Below, one piece after another: positions 50,053-54,548 of a stretch of 64,000 bases of DNA (position 1 is the stretch's first letter; each line of letters starts with the position of its first letter). Origin of the DNA: Candidatus Tiamatella incendiivivens (GTDB lineage: Archaea; Thermoproteota; Thermoprotei_A; Sulfolobales; Acidilobaceae); NCBI GenBank assembly GCA_015522635.1, contig WALW01000010.1, forward strand, positions 14,640 to 78,639, in the 5' to 3' direction. The translations under genes and the position numbers were made by a program. The notes under the pieces were generated by a model. The model was not told the origin of the DNA. It saw only the letters and a list, made by a program, of their open reading frames with translations, and searched no databases.

Positions 50053-50739
50053 AACGAGCTCCTCGATTATTTCCTTGAATCCTCCCCCACTAGGACTACT
50101 AGCCACGTAAGACGCGACAACCTTAGCCTCCTCATCCGCGTTAGAAGGCACAGCAGAACTCCCCGCTGCTACAAGCATCTCAATATCATTCTTAGAATCA
50201 CCAACAGCAAGCACTTCACTCCTCCTCAACCCTAAAGTCTTAGCAAGCCCGACCAAAGCCTTACCCTTACCTCCTCCAGGCGGCTGTAGATGAATAGCGA
50301 ATCCGCTGTAAAGTATCCTTCCATCCCAGCCAGAATCCTCCACGATCCTCCTAGCCATCTTATAATACTTCTCACCGGAACCATCAAGTGGAACCGGGAA
50401 AGCTATATCATGGTCTCTATACCTATTCTGCCAGCTACCCTCTAATCCCAGCTCCCTTATCTTCTCCAATATCCACTCTGGAGGCCTACCTTTGCAGAGC
50501 CTTGCAATATTCCCATTATAGTATATAATACAACCGTTCTCCGCTATTACTGGGCCCAGAGCCCCAGTGTACCTAGACAAACCCATTATAACTGGGAGAC
50601 TATTCCCCGAGGAGAGGGCGATAATCACACCTCGCTCCCTGGCTTCCCTTATAGCTTCCAGAGCCCCGCAGTCCAAGGGGAACTCTGTTCTACCCACTGT
50701 TATCGTTCCATCCACATCCGAAACAACTAGCTTAATCAT
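50029..50739 (-). CDS. HAD-superfamily phosphatase (Cof/phosphoglycolate phosphatase-like)
   Basis: Motif I VVSDVDGTIT, motif III/IV KGKAL...VGDSKNDIEM. Confidence 0.7.
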   Translation of the reverse strand: MIKLVVSDVDGTITVGRTEFPLDCGALEAIREARERGVIIALSSGNSLPVIMGLSRYTGALGPVIAENGCIIYYNGNIARLCKGRPPEWILEKIRELGLEGSWQNRYRDHDIAFPVPLDGSGEKYYKMARRIVEDSGWDGRILYSGFAIHLQPPGGGKGKALVGLAKTLGLRRSEVLAVGDSKNDIEMLVAAGSSAVPSNADEEAKVVASYVASSPSGGGFKEIIEELVLGEVTHS

Positions 50740-51308
50740 CCTAGCCTCCTCTCGTAAATAGTCTCATATATAGGCCCCTTCCTAGTCAAAATACTCTTCT
50801 TCAACCTCACAGAAGAGACCATCATCTCCCCGAACTCAGTATCCCTATAGGATATCATGACCTTAACGAGCTTCTCAAGGTTCCTGGTACCCTTCACTCT
50901 AGCAATAGTTACATGGGGATGGAACTGTGCTCTCTCAGGCTTGAAACCAGCCCTTCTAACCCCCCTTTCCACTATCCGGTTGATCCCGATAAGCTCATCC
51001 GAGCCTTCCGTGACACCGATCCATATAACTCTAGGCCTATAAGGATTAGGGAAGCCTCCCAAGCCGACGAGTTTAGTCTTAAACTCCCCTATATCAATAG
51101 GCTCTAAAGCCTCCCTAACTATATCATCAACTCTGGATTCAGGTACTTCACCGATAAACCTTATCGTTATATGCATGTTCTCCGTTTCAACAGGCTTCAT
51201 AGGTACACCGGTACTTGATATGGAGTCACGGATTCTCTCAAGCCTCCCTAGGATAAGGGGGTCATCTATATCTACTGCAATGAATACCCTAACCATTTTA
51301 GACACCAA
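50736..51308 (-). CDS. thpR: RNA 2',3'-cyclic phosphodiesterase (2H phosphoesterase, ThpR/LigT)
   Basis: Two H-x-T-x motifs (HITIRF and HVTIARV) in a 190-aa protein. Confidence 0.8.
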   Translation of the reverse strand: MVSKMVRVFIAVDIDDPLILGRLERIRDSISSTGVPMKPVETENMHITIRFIGEVPESRVDDIVREALEPIDIGEFKTKLVGLGGFPNPYRPRVIWIGVTEGSDELIGINRIVERGVRRAGFKPERAQFHPHVTIARVKGTRNLEKLVKVMISYRDTEFGEMMVSSVRLKKSILTRKGPIYETIYERRLG

Positions 51309-51418
51309 ATCAACTCCATTTTAACCAGATAATGAGGGACTAAGGGATTTAAGTGTGAAACAATAATAGTAGTTGAAACTATATATCCCTCGGAACATTA
51401 AATCCATGGGATTCACGG

Positions 51419-52156
51419 GTGCCGGATATGGAGGCTATCGAAGAAAGGCGGTATAATGCTTTAATAGTGCTTACAGGACTGTTCATAGCCAGCCTTACAG
51501 CCTCGAATTTCCTTGCTTCAAAGATATTCGCAATAAATATACTAGGATTAACGGTAGCTGCTCCAGCAGCCGTCTTAGCATACGCGTTGACATTCACATT
51601 CACAGACATAATAAGTGAGATCCACGGTAGGAAAGCTGCAAACCTAGTTGTGAGAATAGGATTCGCCAGCCAGCTAATAGTACTAACATACATTTGGTTT
51701 GCACTGAAACTTCCCACCGCCCCATTCTCACCAGTAAACGAGGAATCCTATAGTAGCGTCATCTTCAGCGGGTACACTATTATAACAGCGAGCCTGACCG
51801 CCTACCTAGTAAGCCAGCACCATGACGTCTGGGCATTCCATATGTGGAGAATTAAGACTAAGGGAAGAATGCTATGGCTTAGGAACAACGCTTCAACACT
51901 CGTAAGCCAGCTACTTGACACGGTTATATTCATATCACTAGCCTTCAACGTCCTCCCTGCAGTAATTGGAGGCAACCCGTTGCCATGGGATGTGATCGGT
52001 ACAATTATACTAGGCCAGTATATTGTGAAGCTGGTAATAGCACTCCTAGACACACCTATAGTATACCTGGGTGTAATGATGACTAGGAACTACATTAACA
52101 TACCATCGGAATCTCTAACTCCTCAAACAGGAGGATTGTTAAAGGTGGAAGAATAA
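51419..52156 (+). CDS. YhhQ/DUF165-family queuosine-precursor (preQ0) transporter
   Basis: 245 aa with 6 TM. LAYALTFTFTDIISEIHGRKAA and NASTLVSQLLDTVIF are blocks typical of the YhhQ family. Confidence 0.65.
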   Translation: MPDMEAIEERRYNALIVLTGLFIASLTASNFLASKIFAINILGLTVAAPAAVLAYALTFTFTDIISEIHGRKAANLVVRIGFASQLIVLTYIWFALKLPTAPFSPVNEESYSSVIFSGYTIITASLTAYLVSQHHDVWAFHMWRIKTKGRMLWLRNNASTLVSQLLDTVIFISLAFNVLPAVIGGNPLPWDVIGTIILGQYIVKLVIALLDTPIVYLGVMMTRNYINIPSESLTPQTGGLLKVEE

Positions 52157-52158
52157 CC

Positions 52159-52908
52159 ATGATAGGAGTATTCAGGGAGAATGACAAGCTAGGTAAAAGA
52201 CTTATCATAATCCTAAGAGGATTCCCCTGCTCCTACGGTAAATGTACCTTCTGCCCCTTCATAGTAGAGCAGTCTCTCAACACTAATAAAGTAGTATTCG
52301 AAAACAGGGAAATCATAAGCCAAGCACTTAAAGAGAAAGAAGAGTATAAACCTGAGAGAATAGCAGTATTCAACGGAGGAAGCTTCCACGAGCTACCATA
52401 TGACACTATTGAAAAGCTGGCCCCCCTAGCCAAGGATATGGTCTTCGAAATCGAGGAGAGGAGCGAGTTCATCACACTTGAATCTGTAAAAGCTCTACTA
52501 GACTACTACCATCCAGACCTCCTAGTTATGAGAATAGGCTTCGAGACGTTCCTTGAAGATATACGTGAGGGAGTCCTAAATAAGGGAATGCCTGACAGCG
52601 AGTTAAAGCGAGTAGTTCAGGTGAGGATTGAGGCGCAAAACAAGGGATGGCCTATTGAGATATGGAGCTATCTCCTCTTCGGAATGAAGGGAATCCCAGA
52701 GGAGAGTGTAAGTGAGAGTCTAAGGGCTTTCAAGAAAATATTCGATGGCGTTATAGCCGTAAGGTACAGGAAATACCTTCCAAACCACCCTGAACCTACA
52801 CCCATCTCGGATAAGCTCCGAGAACTATTAAACAAAGAAGCAGACCTCGTTGACTGGGGTGGAGAAGAGTGGATGATAGGGGAAAGGAAGGGATATGCCC
52901 CGGAGTAG
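52159..52908 (+). CDS. Radical-SAM-like Fe-S protein, RaSEA-like by context
   Basis: N-terminal tri-Cys GFPCSYGKCTFCPF (C-x4-C-x2-C), then FNGGSF and RIGFETF blocks of a TIM-barrel radical-SAM type. It is adjacent to an ArcS-motif gene. Confidence 0.5.
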   Translation: MIGVFRENDKLGKRLIIILRGFPCSYGKCTFCPFIVEQSLNTNKVVFENREIISQALKEKEEYKPERIAVFNGGSFHELPYDTIEKLAPLAKDMVFEIEERSEFITLESVKALLDYYHPDLLVMRIGFETFLEDIREGVLNKGMPDSELKRVVQVRIEAQNKGWPIEIWSYLLFGMKGIPEESVSESLRAFKKIFDGVIAVRYRKYLPNHPEPTPISDKLRELLNKEADLVDWGGEEWMIGERKGYAPE

Positions 52909-53579
52909 TCTGGAGCGGCGGCGAATACGATTGGATACCGCCTAGAGGCGAAAGACTCTACCTTAGAGGTGTCGGATGGAAATTTCTAGCCGAATGGCCC
53001 TTCAATGAAGCCCACCGTAAATTACTCGTCAATTACAGGCCCTCAAGGAAATACCGGGCAGGCCTCTTTATACCATGCTCCTATGGAAAACCCTACAGCC
53101 AAAGCTACATTCACTACTTCATCAGGAAAACAATTGCCAACTACATTAGGAAAGGCATCCTACACGAAGTCATACTCACCAATGCGGGCGTGGTGCCCCG
53201 GGAACTAGACGAACACTGGCCATACACAGCATACGACTGGAATCCAACCAAGGAAACAACAGAGATAAAAAAGTGCTACAAAAACATACTTAAGCAAAGA
53301 ATAAGGGATTACCTGGGGAAATTCGGGGAATACTATGAAAGCTACATTGCATATCTAAGATGGGATAGTGACAGTTGGATGGCTCTAAAAGAAGCGTCTA
53401 AGGAACTAGGCTATACCGTACCCAACCTCGCCGCCGAAAATGTTCCTCTAATAGAGTTAGATGAACTCGACCTAGGCTTGGGATACAAGTTGGACCCGGA
53501 TCTAATACTAATTACACCCACAAGCCTCAAAAACCTCGTAAATGGGCTTGAATCGATTATAGGAGAGGTAGTAAAATGA
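52869..53579 (+). CDS. Short ArcS-like protein (DUF5591-type domain only)
   Basis: IPCSYGKPYSQSYIH (53073-53114) matches exactly the archaeosine synthase signature PC-x3-KPY-x2-S-x2-H. At 236 aa it has no TGT-like or PUA domain. Confidence 0.6.
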   Translation: MDDRGKEGICPGVVWSGGEYDWIPPRGERLYLRGVGWKFLAEWPFNEAHRKLLVNYRPSRKYRAGLFIPCSYGKPYSQSYIHYFIRKTIANYIRKGILHEVILTNAGVVPRELDEHWPYTAYDWNPTKETTEIKKCYKNILKQRIRDYLGKFGEYYESYIAYLRWDSDSWMALKEASKELGYTVPNLAAENVPLIELDELDLGLGYKLDPDLILITPTSLKNLVNGLESIIGEVVK

Positions 53580-54178
53580 CTAGAATACTGGTACTAGTCA
53601 CCGGACTACCAGGTAGTGGGAAAAGCATAGTTAGTGAAGTGGCACGCGAGAAAGGAATACCAACAGTAGTTATGGGCGATGTTGTCAGGGAAGAAGCAGT
53701 AAAAAGAGGAGTAAAACTCCTCCCGGAGAACCTATCTATAATAGCCAATGATTTAAGGGAAAAATATGGGAAAGCAGCAATTGCATTGTTTACAACGGAT
53801 AAGATAAGGAGGAACCATGCATCCTCGGCAGTAGTAGTTGTAGACGGTGTAAGGAGCTTAGATGAAGTAGCTGTTTTCGAGGAACTAGGCAATGTATGCA
53901 TTATAGCAGTACACGCCAGTCCCACCAGAAGATTTGAGAGAATAAGGCAGAGGGGTAGGCCTGGTGATCCTAACGACTGGGCCCAGTTCTTAGGCAGAGA
54001 CCTGGTTGAACTGTCGTGGGGGATAGGAAACGTTATAGCCCTCGCTGACTACATCGTCGTAAACGAGTCATCAAAGGATGACACAAGGATGCAATCCGAG
54101 AGAGTGATAATGGAGGTACTGGATAATGGAGGTAGAGGTTGCAGCAGAGGCAGAGGTAAGGCCTACGGAAGACGCTGA
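53576..54178 (+). CDS. UPF0200-type P-loop nucleotide kinase-like protein
   Basis: ILVLVTGLPGSGKSIVSEVAREKGIPTVVMGDVVREEA has a P-loop plus the family-typical MGDVVR. ATGA overlap with the upstream gene. Confidence 0.6.
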   Translation: MTRILVLVTGLPGSGKSIVSEVAREKGIPTVVMGDVVREEAVKRGVKLLPENLSIIANDLREKYGKAAIALFTTDKIRRNHASSAVVVVDGVRSLDEVAVFEELGNVCIIAVHASPTRRFERIRQRGRPGDPNDWAQFLGRDLVELSWGIGNVIALADYIVVNESSKDDTRMQSERVIMEVLDNGGRGCSRGRGKAYGRR

Positions 54179-54548
54179 GAGAGTCAGGGAAGCTCTCGAC
54201 AATATTTTCGACGGTCAAGCGAGTATAGAGGGGGGCATGGTTAAACTAGCATGTAAAAGCCTTAGTTGCCTCTCAAAACTCCATTTGAAACTTAGGCAGC
54301 AGAGGATACTTGATACGGCACGAAGTGTGTTAAGGAAAAGCACTTATGGTGAGTACATAGAGTTTATGCTAAACAAACAGGCAGCCTATGCTGGTAAAGT
54401 TAGCTTTGTAACAGACCCTAATGAAAGTCCTATGGGTCCTATAAGGGTGCTCATAAAGCATCCAGATCCAGGGGAGGTAATAGACTGGCTGGCTCCTAGG
54501 ACAAGCCATGGCAAGCCTTTATGGGAGAGGAAAATGCCCTCCTCCTAG
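54126..54548 (+). CDS. UPF0201-type (DUF54, putative RNA-binding) protein
   Basis: 140 aa. The N-terminus VEVAAEAEVRPTEDAERVREAL is typical of the family that usually neighbours UPF0200 genes. Confidence 0.5.
   Translation: MEVEVAAEAEVRPTEDAERVREALDNIFDGQASIEGGMVKLACKSLSCLSKLHLKLRQQRILDTARSVLRKSTYGEYIEFMLNKQAAYAGKVSFVTDPNESPMGPIRVLIKHPDPGEVIDWLAPRTSHGKPLWERKMPSS

Follow-up and report, generated by a model that had tools for sequence, protein, structure and literature searches.

To our knowledge, most Crenarchaeota are stated in the literature to lack the archaeosine synthase ArcS, and we know of only two substitutes offered so far, GAT-QueC and QueF-like. Archaeosine itself, found at position 15, is held to be quasi-universal in the tRNA of archaea (PMC5485725). 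The ArcS–RaSEA complex (NF040592 and TIGR01210) is known from Euryarchaeota, namely Thermococcus kodakarensis, in the account of Yokogawa 2019 that is cited in PMC11298593. Free Thermococcus ArcS is inactive without RaSEA, and as substrate it needs just the preQ0 nucleoside or 5'-phosphate (PMC11298593). The motif PC-x3-KPY-x2-S-x2-H has been given for ArcS, and stand-alone C1-domain ArcS (ArcS2) has been mentioned for some archaea and viruses; the viral C1-only ArcS2 yields dG+ on DNA (PMC10516641). A second radical-SAM enzyme of 7-deazaguanine metabolism, QueL (PDB 6P78), belongs to bacterial indirect queuine salvage, as PMC7694415 cites it from Yuan 2019.

We analyzed three closely packed genes from a hot-spring archaeon. 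They lie in a stretch of DNA of 64,000 nt, referred to here as the window. A sequence-only reading of the window had placed three ORFs on the + strand, and all were found there, encoding 245, 249, and 236 aa. The features of the locus are as follows.

51419..52156, + strand: YhhQ/COG1738-type 7-deazaguanine (predicted preQ0) transporter, 245 aa, with PF02592 and TIGR00697 matches.
52159..52908, + strand: short radical-SAM protein of the RaSEA/QueL superfamily, 249 aa, predicted C–N lyase and predicted partner of mini-ArcS.
52228..52254, + strand: codons of C24-x4-C29-x2-C32 (CSYGKCTFC), predicted [4Fe-4S]/SAM cluster ligands; the triad is invariant in 31 homologues.
52869..53579, + strand: mini-ArcS, a stand-alone DUF5591 (ArcS C1 catalytic core) protein, 236 aa, GTG start.
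53073..53114, + strand: codons of PCSYGKPYSQSYIH (mini-ArcS aa 69-82), the ArcS signature PC-x3-KPY-x2-S-x2-H.
52869..52908, + strand: 40-nt same-strand overlap of the radical-SAM and mini-ArcS genes, read from the sequence; candidate translational coupling.

The 40-nt overlap had been claimed as well, and it is real. The radical-SAM frame ends at TAG 52906-52908, and GTG 52869 is the only in-frame start before the invariant W15 of mini-ArcS. In a same-genus relative (G391), the two genes overlap by 37 nt. The hexapeptide PCSYGK is common to both proteins, as had been pointed out. ATG 51428 is a possible alternative start of the transporter gene. An Rfam search of 50600-53700 gave nothing credible, neither a preQ1 nor another riboswitch upstream of yhhQ. 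The current annotation of the two enzymes reads only "DUF5591 domain-containing" and "hypothetical".

Profile searches with DUF5591 and RaSEA models had been proposed, and these profiles were the only specific matches of the two enzymes. For mini-ArcS, PF17884 (DUF5591) scored 55 bits vs a cut-off of 26. The models of the archaeosine synthase alpha subunit, NF040592 and NF053620, gave 51 bits (cut-off 440) and 52 bits (cut-off 600), in the C1 region only, and the alignment was confined to ArcS model positions 288-413 of 575. No TGT (PF01702) or PUA domain was matched in Pfam at E ≤ 0.1. Thus, as the sequence-only reading had stated, mini-ArcS has neither the TGT-like N-terminal nor the PUA domain; the TGT-like N-terminal, C2, and PUA parts found in ArcS proteins of about 515-575 aa are all missing. 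What it retains is C1, with the PF17884 match and PCSYGKPYSQSYIH, an exact fit to the ArcS signature. P69, C70, K74, P75, Y76, S79, and H82 of this motif were invariant in 28 homologues. The AF2 model (pLDDT 85.7) had 2Q07 (AF0587) as its sole significant PDB match. The protein has a pI of 7.6 and is not basic, and a recognizable RNA-binding domain is absent. Its family contains 158 homologues with a constant length of about 225-245 aa.

The 249-aa protein had been called RaSEA-like and seen as fitting RaSEA. That call held for the superfamily and for the only profile matched, but not for the family. The equivalog cut-off of TIGR01210 (RaSEA), for a full-length match with the C-terminal region, is 212 bits; this protein gave 53.7 bits with the model, its sole NCBIfam match, over model positions 9-184 of 313. 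RaSEA's C-terminal third is missing. RaSEA-like proteins of 326-527 aa gave 122-233 bits over nearly the whole TIGR01210 model, only one of them above the cut-off. The radical-SAM core of RaSEA is present. It includes the previously noticed tri-Cys motif C-x4-C-x2-C (PCSYGKCTFC), in which C24, C29, and C32 were invariant in 31 homologues, and a SAM-binding motif of the GGS/E type; N72-G73-x-S75-x2-E78 is invariant in the family. The predicted fold is a radical-SAM barrel (pLDDT 93).

The nearest match was a queuine lyase. PDB 6P78 matched the protein in sequence (E = 1e-15) and was the top fold match of its model (Foldseek E 5e-11, TM 0.70/0.76), in a PDB that offered no ArcS or RaSEA structure for comparison and gave matches only to 2Q07 and 6P78. 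The cluster motif of 6P78, PCIWGKCSFC, has identical spacing. The protein thus has the structural features of QueL, namely a radical-SAM fold of about 250 aa, similar to 6P78, with C-x4-C-x2-C. Its pI is 5.3. The family contains 111 homologues with a constant length of about 245 aa, scoring 230 bits inside the family vs ≤92 bits outside. As the protein lies below the RaSEA threshold, lacks the C-terminal third, and is nearest to QueL, it is not an orthodox RaSEA, and "RaSEA-like" applies at the superfamily level only. Both mini-ArcS and the radical-SAM protein belong to tight, constant-length families, indicating that they are not fragments.

We then surveyed 121 genomes of the order and 401 genomes of the phylum. 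Within the order, there were 22 mini-ArcS and 21 radical-SAM orthologues, and both occurred in 19 of 121 genomes. The two genes were adjacent in 16 of these 19; the radical-SAM gene preceded mini-ArcS in 10 and followed it in 6. In one further pair they were about 1 kb apart, and in a QueC-positive genome (G094) they were unlinked. The five single-gene cases either bordered a contig end or came from genomes with a completeness of 61-82%. The radical-SAM gene was found in just 8 of the 401 phylum genomes; outside the order it occurred in three (G007, G029, and G342), and mini-ArcS adjoined it in 3 of 3. Two genomes of a related genus (G177 and G118) encode fusion proteins of 451-452 aa, in which a TIGR01210 match (77 bits) is followed by the ArcS core (69 bits). 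Adjacency kept in both gene orders, together with fusion in a related genus, supported a functional link of the two genes. No description of the pair or of the fusion was found in the literature searched, which excluded the two founding ArcS-diversity papers and the 2019 RaSEA paper. The proposed combination of a stand-alone DUF5591 core with RaSEA was largely borne out; the radical-SAM partner is not an orthodox RaSEA, and C1-only ArcS was already in the literature. Stand-alone DUF5591 proteins of other families keep the motif intact and have no radical-SAM partner, suggesting that the core may function by itself if a different nitrogen donor is used.

The radical-SAM tree was unrooted, because paralogues in the genome were too distant to serve as outgroup (best non-self match E 0.1). 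In this unrooted tree, the short family formed its own clade (99/98). A split with 100/99 support put this clade on the side of QueL, opposite the RaSEA-like proteins, and it lay outside the QueL-like clade (100/99). An AU test did not reject a clade of the short family and the RaSEA-side fusion domains (p = 0.19). The queuosine-salvage context of QueL (bacterial TGT, QueK/QueT) was not seen either, the only TGT of the genome being arcTGT. It is possible, although doubtful, that the short family is an archaeal sister of queuine lyase recruited to the ArcS core, the pair being a synthase without tRNA-binding domains. If so, queuine salvage and archaeosine synthesis would share one ancestral 7-deazaguanine N-dealkylating lyase, and the missing last pathway enzyme of Desulfurococcales-type archaea would be identified. 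A more radical version of this reading has the pair acting on a salvaged nucleobase or nucleoside before tRNA insertion.

The source genome is 95.8% complete. The suggested inspection of its archaeosine genes found one arcTGT (476 bits vs a cut-off of 350) and none of QueC, QueE, QueF-like, and GAT-QueC. Profile searches of the genome gave no full-length ArcS and no second DUF5591 or RaSEA-like gene. A full-length ArcS elsewhere, which the sequence-only reading had itself put forward as a sign that the short ORF is a non-functional fragment, was thus looked for and not found; mini-ArcS is the sole DUF5591 gene and is not a fragment beside an intact ArcS. A weak QueC match was a Dph6/TTX_0299-type PP-loop protein, a QueD candidate was a PTPS-like protein (47.7 vs a cut-off of 89), and the QueE search gave generic radical-SAM similarity only. 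Across the order, arcTGT was present in 106 of 106 good genomes. GAT-QueC (465-501 aa) occurred in all 13 genomes of one family (f4), and QueF-like candidates were confined to genomes without the pair. Many ORFs of 500-560 aa with DUF5591 matches were considered as full-length ArcS without RaSEA in Thermoproteota, and this was rejected. Their coordinates are those of arcTGT, the match lies at about aa 375-480, and the PC-x3-KPY motif is absent, indicating that the Pfam DUF5591 model picks up the C1 domain of arcTGT.

The same data bear on two alternatives. In the first, the pair would serve to modify DNA (dG+), as the viral DpdA-ArcS2 modules do; the ArcS2 of these modules is likewise a C1 core only (PMC10516641). 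The genome has no second TGT-family gene, and its single one is a bona fide arcTGT, so the DpdA partner of such modules is absent. The pair also sits among housekeeping genes in conserved synteny, and no mobile-element signs were seen at its locus. We therefore consider a DNA-modification system extremely unlikely. In the second alternative, the 7-deazaguanine product is not archaeosine but, for example, a stable amino-acid adduct or a different amidine; the latter would require another amine donor and another radical-SAM outcome. In its favor, both proteins score far under the equivalog thresholds of ArcS and RaSEA, the radical-SAM proteins form a clade apart, with the score gap of 230 vs ≤92 bits, and dCDG, not dG+, is found in STSV2, a virus with a C1-only ArcS2 (PMC10516641). 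Nevertheless, a different product is quite unlikely, since the ArcS motif is fully conserved, no other archaeosine synthase is present though arcTGT is universal in the order, and archaeosine is quasi-universal in archaeal tRNA (PMC5485725).

The upstream gene had been called a YhhQ/DUF165 transporter, and the profiles agreed. TIGR00697 ("queuosine precursor transporter") scored 168.8 bits vs a cut-off of 50.95 over model positions 4-200 of 201, and a Pfam profile search gave 171.4 bits for Vut_1/PF02592. The protein passes the curated TIGR00697 cut-off over the full model, with preQ0 as its predicted substrate. A YhhQ homologue directly adjoined the pair in G391, G453, G413, G449, G411, G422, G419, and the distant G029. 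YhhQ was found in 18 of the 21 QueC-less genomes with either gene of the pair and in 0 of 3 QueC-positive holders. The presence of YhhQ in holders that lack QueC, frequently within one operon with the pair, pointed to salvage of preQ0, as the transporter had suggested from the start. Small-genome archaea without preQ0 synthesis appear dependent on preQ0 scavenged via YhhQ. The pair is not tied to import, because QueC-positive genomes retain it without YhhQ and unlinked.

This last result weighs against two further alternatives that start from the transporter. The pair might act on imported preQ0 before tRNA is involved, turning the free compound (base, nucleoside, or nucleotide) into archaeosine base or a different derivative, which would then be inserted by arcTGT or used elsewhere. 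Such a route would fit a radical-SAM family on the side of queuine lyase (100/99), whose substrate is a free base, the full-length fold match to 6P78, the lack of an RNA-binding domain in both proteins, and the tight packing with a base transporter; the arcTGTs of ArcS-less Crenarchaeota might also accommodate G+ base (PMC5485725). However, G+ base is not a substrate of canonical arcTGT, and QueF-like acts on tRNA (PMC5485725); Thermococcus ArcS refuses preQ0 base (PMC11298593), the pair persists without YhhQ and unlinked in G094, and shared ancestry with the RaSEA-side fusion domain was compatible with the AU test (p = 0.19). We consider the route unlikely. It is very improbable that the module instead salvages archaeosine, or another amidine or aminomethyl deazaguanine, to preQ0 for arcTGT, a scheme modeled on queuine lyase supplying bacterial TGT. 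The QueL-like fold and the operon with a transporter where preQ0 cannot be made are consistent with it, and archaeal necromass would presumably be G+-rich. Yet the pair is kept in QueC-positive genomes without YhhQ, the amine-adding ArcS core would have no evident role, Thermococcus ArcS is not reversible (PMC11298593), and the final archaeosine step would have no enzyme in these genomes.

Given these domain identities, the linkage and fusion, a genome without other synthases or genes for making preQ0, and the co-occurrence with YhhQ, the three genes probably form a preQ0-salvage and minimal archaeosine-synthase operon, with predicted chemistry and substrate. The pair is most likely a stripped-down, uncharacterized version of the ArcS–RaSEA machinery, coupled to preQ0 import. 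YhhQ would import preQ0, as the organism is unable to make it. ArcTGT, encoded elsewhere, would place preQ0 at G15 of tRNA, the established function of its family. By homology, mini-ArcS, a bare ArcS catalytic core, would act through its Cys70/Lys74 motif on tRNA-borne preQ0, whose nitrile would receive an amine; as in Thermococcus, this is probably lysine. The C–N bond of the adduct would then be cleaved by the radical-SAM protein, probably in complex with the core, with the help of SAM and a [4Fe-4S] cluster bound by C24/C29/C32, giving the formamidine of archaeosine. This cleavage is suggested by RaSEA and queuine lyase, which likewise N-dealkylate 7-substituted 7-deazaguanine. A PUA-less core is plausible because Thermococcus ArcS needs only preQ0 nucleoside or 5'-phosphate (PMC11298593). 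Several observations count against the operon as proposed: the radical-SAM protein is below the RaSEA threshold, lacks the C-terminal region of RaSEA, and falls with queuine lyase, an enzyme of a free base and not of RNA; mini-ArcS is not basic and has no recognizable RNA-binding domain; and some other stand-alone DUF5591 families with an intact motif lack a radical-SAM partner.

The locus and its relatives are a third candidate for Desulfurococcales-type lineages without GAT-QueC and QueF-like. Should the prediction for the pair hold, ArcS could do without its TGT-like and PUA domains. The short radical-SAM family would be an intermediate that links RaSEA and bacterial queuine lyase.

The pair has both catalytic modules of ArcS–RaSEA: an ArcS C1 core that carries PC-x3-KPY-x2-S-x2-H, and a radical-SAM partner from the superfamily of RaSEA. 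As in ArcS–RaSEA, the modules are genetically coupled and placed downstream of arcTGT in the pathway. Mini-ArcS has 236 aa vs about 575 aa for ArcS, without the TGT-like N-terminal, C2, and PUA domains, and the radical-SAM protein has 249 aa vs about 313-380 aa and branches with queuine lyase, not inside RaSEA. Both are four- to eightfold under the equivalog cut-offs. QueL is the best sequence and fold match of the radical-SAM protein and shares its length, fold, C-x4-C-x2-C motif, predicted C–N cleavage on the 7-substituent of 7-deazaguanine, and salvage context with a transporter. Unlike the radical-SAM protein, which forms a separate archaeal clade, always comes with a DUF5591 protein, and occurs in a genome whose TGT is arcTGT and not a bacterial-type one, QueL needs no partner and turns free queuine into preQ1 for bacterial TGT. 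ArcS2 of Vibrio phage nt-1 and Sulfolobus virus STSV2 is likewise a stand-alone C1 domain with the ArcS motif, but it acts with DpdA on DNA and has no radical-SAM partner described (PMC10516641), whereas this locus has no DpdA and a conserved radical-SAM partner. The fusion proteins contain both modules without TGT-like or PUA domains, and beyond its own family, mini-ArcS has its closest relative in their DUF5591 part (E 1e-25 to 1e-29). In contrast to the pair, their modules are fused, their radical-SAM part is on the RaSEA side of the tree, the last residue of the motif is W instead of H, and their genomes have QueC and no YhhQ. GAT-QueC and QueF-like are placed at the pathway step predicted for the pair and are mutually exclusive with it in order-wide distribution, but they have unrelated folds and perform glutamine- or ammonium-dependent amidation without radical SAM (PMC5485725).

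Five genes lie close together on the plus strand of the window (51419-54548), and genes for an RNA 2',3'-cyclic phosphodiesterase and a phosphoglycolate phosphatase are located upstream of them on the opposite strand.

Genes of the locus (window coordinates, strand, product)
51419-52156, +, YhhQ/COG1738 transporter, 245 aa (Vut_1 171 bits; TIGR00697 168.8 bits, cut-off 50.95)
52159-52908, +, radical-SAM protein, 249 aa (TIGR01210 53.7 bits, cut-off 212)
52869-53579, +, mini-ArcS, 236 aa (DUF5591 55 bits, cut-off 26)
53576-54178, +, UPF0200 kinase-like protein
54126-54548, +, UPF0201 RNA-binding-like protein

The sequence-only reading had placed a YhhQ-type transporter upstream of the other genes, and both transporter profiles confirmed it. 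The 40-nt overlap it had claimed between the radical-SAM and mini-ArcS genes was also borne out: the first frame stops at TAG 52906-52908, and GTG 52869 is the sole in-frame start of the second before its invariant Trp15. The UPF0200 gene overlaps the mini-ArcS gene by 4 nt, and the UPF0200 and UPF0201 genes overlap each other by 53 nt (53576-54548). Their position next to the pair was kept in the same genus only (genome G391), and they are probably not in the module.

Mini-ArcS is a one-domain DUF5591 protein. Two ArcS models (cut-offs 440 and 600) matched its C1 region only, with 51-52 bits, and profile search of the protein detected no TGT or PUA domain, as the sequence-only reading had described. 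Its homologues (n = 158, about 225-245 aa) all had DUF5591 alone and, where named, were called 'DUF5591 domain-containing protein' or 'hypothetical protein'. They came from Desulfurococcales, Thermoprotei and Crenarchaeota MAGs, Pyrolobus fumarii, Pyrodictium and a Desulfurococcaceae isolate, and their alignment kept PC[SA]YGKPY[SG][QNH]S[YF]IH. The predicted model (pLDDT 85.7) was a single alpha/beta domain. Its sole significant match in a PDB set without an ArcS structure was a functionally uncharacterised Archaeoglobus protein, 2Q07 (AF0587), whose aligned part likewise contains PC-x3-KPY-x2-S-x2-H. In the phylum-wide search, the Pfam DUF5591 model also matched the C-terminal C1 domain of arcTGT (aa ~375-480) with up to 76 bits (e.g., loci L034-L037). 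Long ORFs with such a match were rejected as ArcS because they are arcTGT; the match is a trap for annotation.

In the sequence-only reading, the radical-SAM protein fitted RaSEA, the known ArcS partner. RaSEA (TIGR01210) was its sole NCBIfam match; it reached 53.7 bits (cut-off 212) and spanned only model positions 9-184 of 313. Its 111 homologues (~245 aa) were named, where names were given, 'hypothetical', 'MiaB family Fe-S' or 'TIGR01210 family', and C24, C29, C32 and a GGS-x2-E block were invariant in their alignment. Both proteins of the pair thus represent real, conserved families. The short radical-SAM family is tight: when 1.84 billion representatives were searched with its profile, four full-length ones scored at least 230 bits and the remaining relatives at most 92 bits. 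Over its full length, the predicted model (pLDDT 93.2) matched the queuine lyase 6P78 best (E = 5e-11, TM 0.70/0.76), with lipoyl synthases behind, in a PDB set containing no RaSEA structure. 6P78 was also the sole significant PDB sequence match (E = 1e-15), and it has the same C-x4-C-x2-C spacing.

Trees were built with the short family, the radical-SAM domains of fusion proteins (see below), the 6P78 fragment and the best profile matches. Three clades were recovered: the short family (support 99/98), QueL-like proteins of 215-255 aa including 6P78 (100/99) and the fusion domains (100/100). The tree was unrooted, since the genome offers no usable outgroup; a 100/99 split separated the short family and QueL-like proteins from the fusion domains and RaSEA-like proteins of 300-380 aa (TIGR01210 122-233 bits). 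An AU test did not reject a group of the short family and fusion domains (p = 0.19). The RaSEA-like reading held at the superfamily level only. The short family can safely be called a third, separate branch within the RaSEA/QueL superfamily that is no closer to RaSEA than to queuine lyase.

Both adjacent proteins contain PCSYGK at their key cysteines (52225-52242 and 53073-53090). The region is largely fixed per family, as PC[SA][WY]G[KR]C in the radical-SAM proteins and PC[SA]YGKPY in the mini-ArcS proteins. The sharing is probably coincidental because the folds are unrelated.

Among 121 genomes of the order, a mini-ArcS orthologue was found in 22, a radical-SAM orthologue in 21 and both in 19. 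The two genes were side by side in 16 of these 19 (radical-SAM first in 10, mini-ArcS first in 6) and ~1 kb apart in one more, G450 (L019, G450:C65:4328-6705). They were unlinked in G094, a complete genome of 1,843,267 bp, and its relative G444. All five single-gene cases are explicable technically: G014 and G419 are cut off by a contig end, the gene in G437 and G443 (61-71% complete) lies at most 400 nt from the contig start, and G465 is 82% complete. Only 8 of 401 genomes of the phylum had the radical-SAM gene, and in all three outside the order considered here (G007, G029 and G342) it adjoined mini-ArcS. A related genus has both modules fused, in proteins of 452 aa (G177, 1,297,538 bp) and 451 aa (G118, confirmed via the ArcS-core half only). 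In the G177 fusion, TIGR01210 matched residues 17-209 (77 bits) and the ArcS core residues 233-396 (69 bits). That the pair occurs in two gene orders and as a fusion argues strongly for joint action of the two proteins.

A second DUF5591 paralogue, 259-267 aa long and with a motif ending in Y, not H, was present in the fusion genus too (L041, G177:C1:809100-811100; L043 in G253). In G118, a stretch of ~35 kb (C1:578000-613000) contains arcTGT and QueC, at 578 and 595 kb, as well as this paralogue and the fusion gene, at 602 and 612 kb.

The source genome (1.45 Mb, 27 contigs, 95.8% complete) was searched for the rest of the pathway. Its one TGT-family gene is a bona fide arcTGT (TIGR00432 476 bits, cut-off 350), and its single DUF5591 gene and single RaSEA-like gene are those of the pair. 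QueE and QueF or QueF-like genes were not found in it. Nor was QueC, since a 24.6-bit match was rejected as a Dph6/TTX_0299-type PP-loop protein. A PTPS-family protein scored under the QueD cut-off. QueC was also missing from one pair-bearing genome of the same genus (98% complete) and one of the same family (99% complete), so an assembly gap is unlikely to explain its absence.

On the basis of E. coli YhhQ, whose transport of preQ0 has been validated, preQ0 salvage has been proposed for archaea (PMC5372724). QueC was absent from 21 of the 24 order genomes with either pair gene, and 18 of these 21 had a YhhQ homologue; the remaining three are 61-82% complete. The three QueC-positive holders (G094, G444 and G465) all lacked YhhQ, as did the QueC-positive fusion genomes. 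YhhQ adjoined the pair in G391, G453, G413, G449, G411, G422 and G419 and lay 2.4 kb from it in G070. YhhQ and the pair were also neighbours in G029, a distant genome with the opposite gene order in the pair.

RaSEA and queuine lyase both take an alkyl group off a nitrogen on the 7-substituent of 7-deazaguanine. In the favoured route, preQ0 would be imported by YhhQ and put in by arcTGT, mini-ArcS would add an amine, and alkyl removal by the radical-SAM lyase, the second step needed, would leave archaeosine (G+). We consider this whole route likely. Thermococcus ArcS transfers lysine only in complex with RaSEA; a preQ0 nucleoside suffices as its substrate, it prefers one with a 5'-phosphate and does not accept the free base, and tRNA specificity in that system comes from arcTGT (PMC11298593). 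These results make it plausible that a bare catalytic core bound to its radical-SAM partner would be a complete enzyme.

The main rival is that the pair acts on the free nucleoside or base prior to insertion. The QueL affinity of the radical-SAM protein, the lack of RNA-binding domains in the pair and the operon shared with the transporter fit this. Against it, canonical arcTGT is specific for its base, and genomes producing their own preQ0 have kept the pair; we regard this rival as unlikely. That the pair yields another end product is somewhat less probable still. Reverse salvage of G+ is very improbable, and DNA modification, for which no DpdA was present, is the most improbable.

ArcTGT was present in all 106 good genomes of the order, and the candidates for the step after it were mutually exclusive. 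GAT-QueC (465-501 aa) occurred in 13 of 13 genomes of family f4, and QueF-like candidates (at least 36 bits) only in genomes without the pair, such as G142 and G464, where the gene adjoins QueC. The fusion was confined to one genus and the pair to other lineages. Some order genomes, e.g., those of genus g3, had none of these four candidates and no YhhQ. Genus g3 belongs to the window's own family; in its genomes (G062, G078, G331, G337, G349 and G385; 99% complete), arcTGT was present, and QueC, YhhQ, DUF5591, short radical-SAM and QueF-like genes were not found.

Full-text searchable literature yielded no description of the short QueL-like partner family, of its obligate pairing or fusion with mini-ArcS, or of a transporter operon with the pair, and absence there is not proof. 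The feature of YhhQ, radical-SAM protein and mini-ArcS is real. Further stand-alone DUF5591 families with an intact PC-x3-KPY-x2-S-x2-H motif lack a radical-SAM partner (L038-L040, L048 and L049): one of 183-196 aa in f4 genomes that also have GAT-QueC (G313, G110 and G156), and one of 214-227 aa in genus g21 (G271 and G235). These partnerless families resemble viral ArcS2. Known already are YhhQ homologues in archaea (PMC5372724) and, in Euryarchaeota, the ArcS-RaSEA complex.
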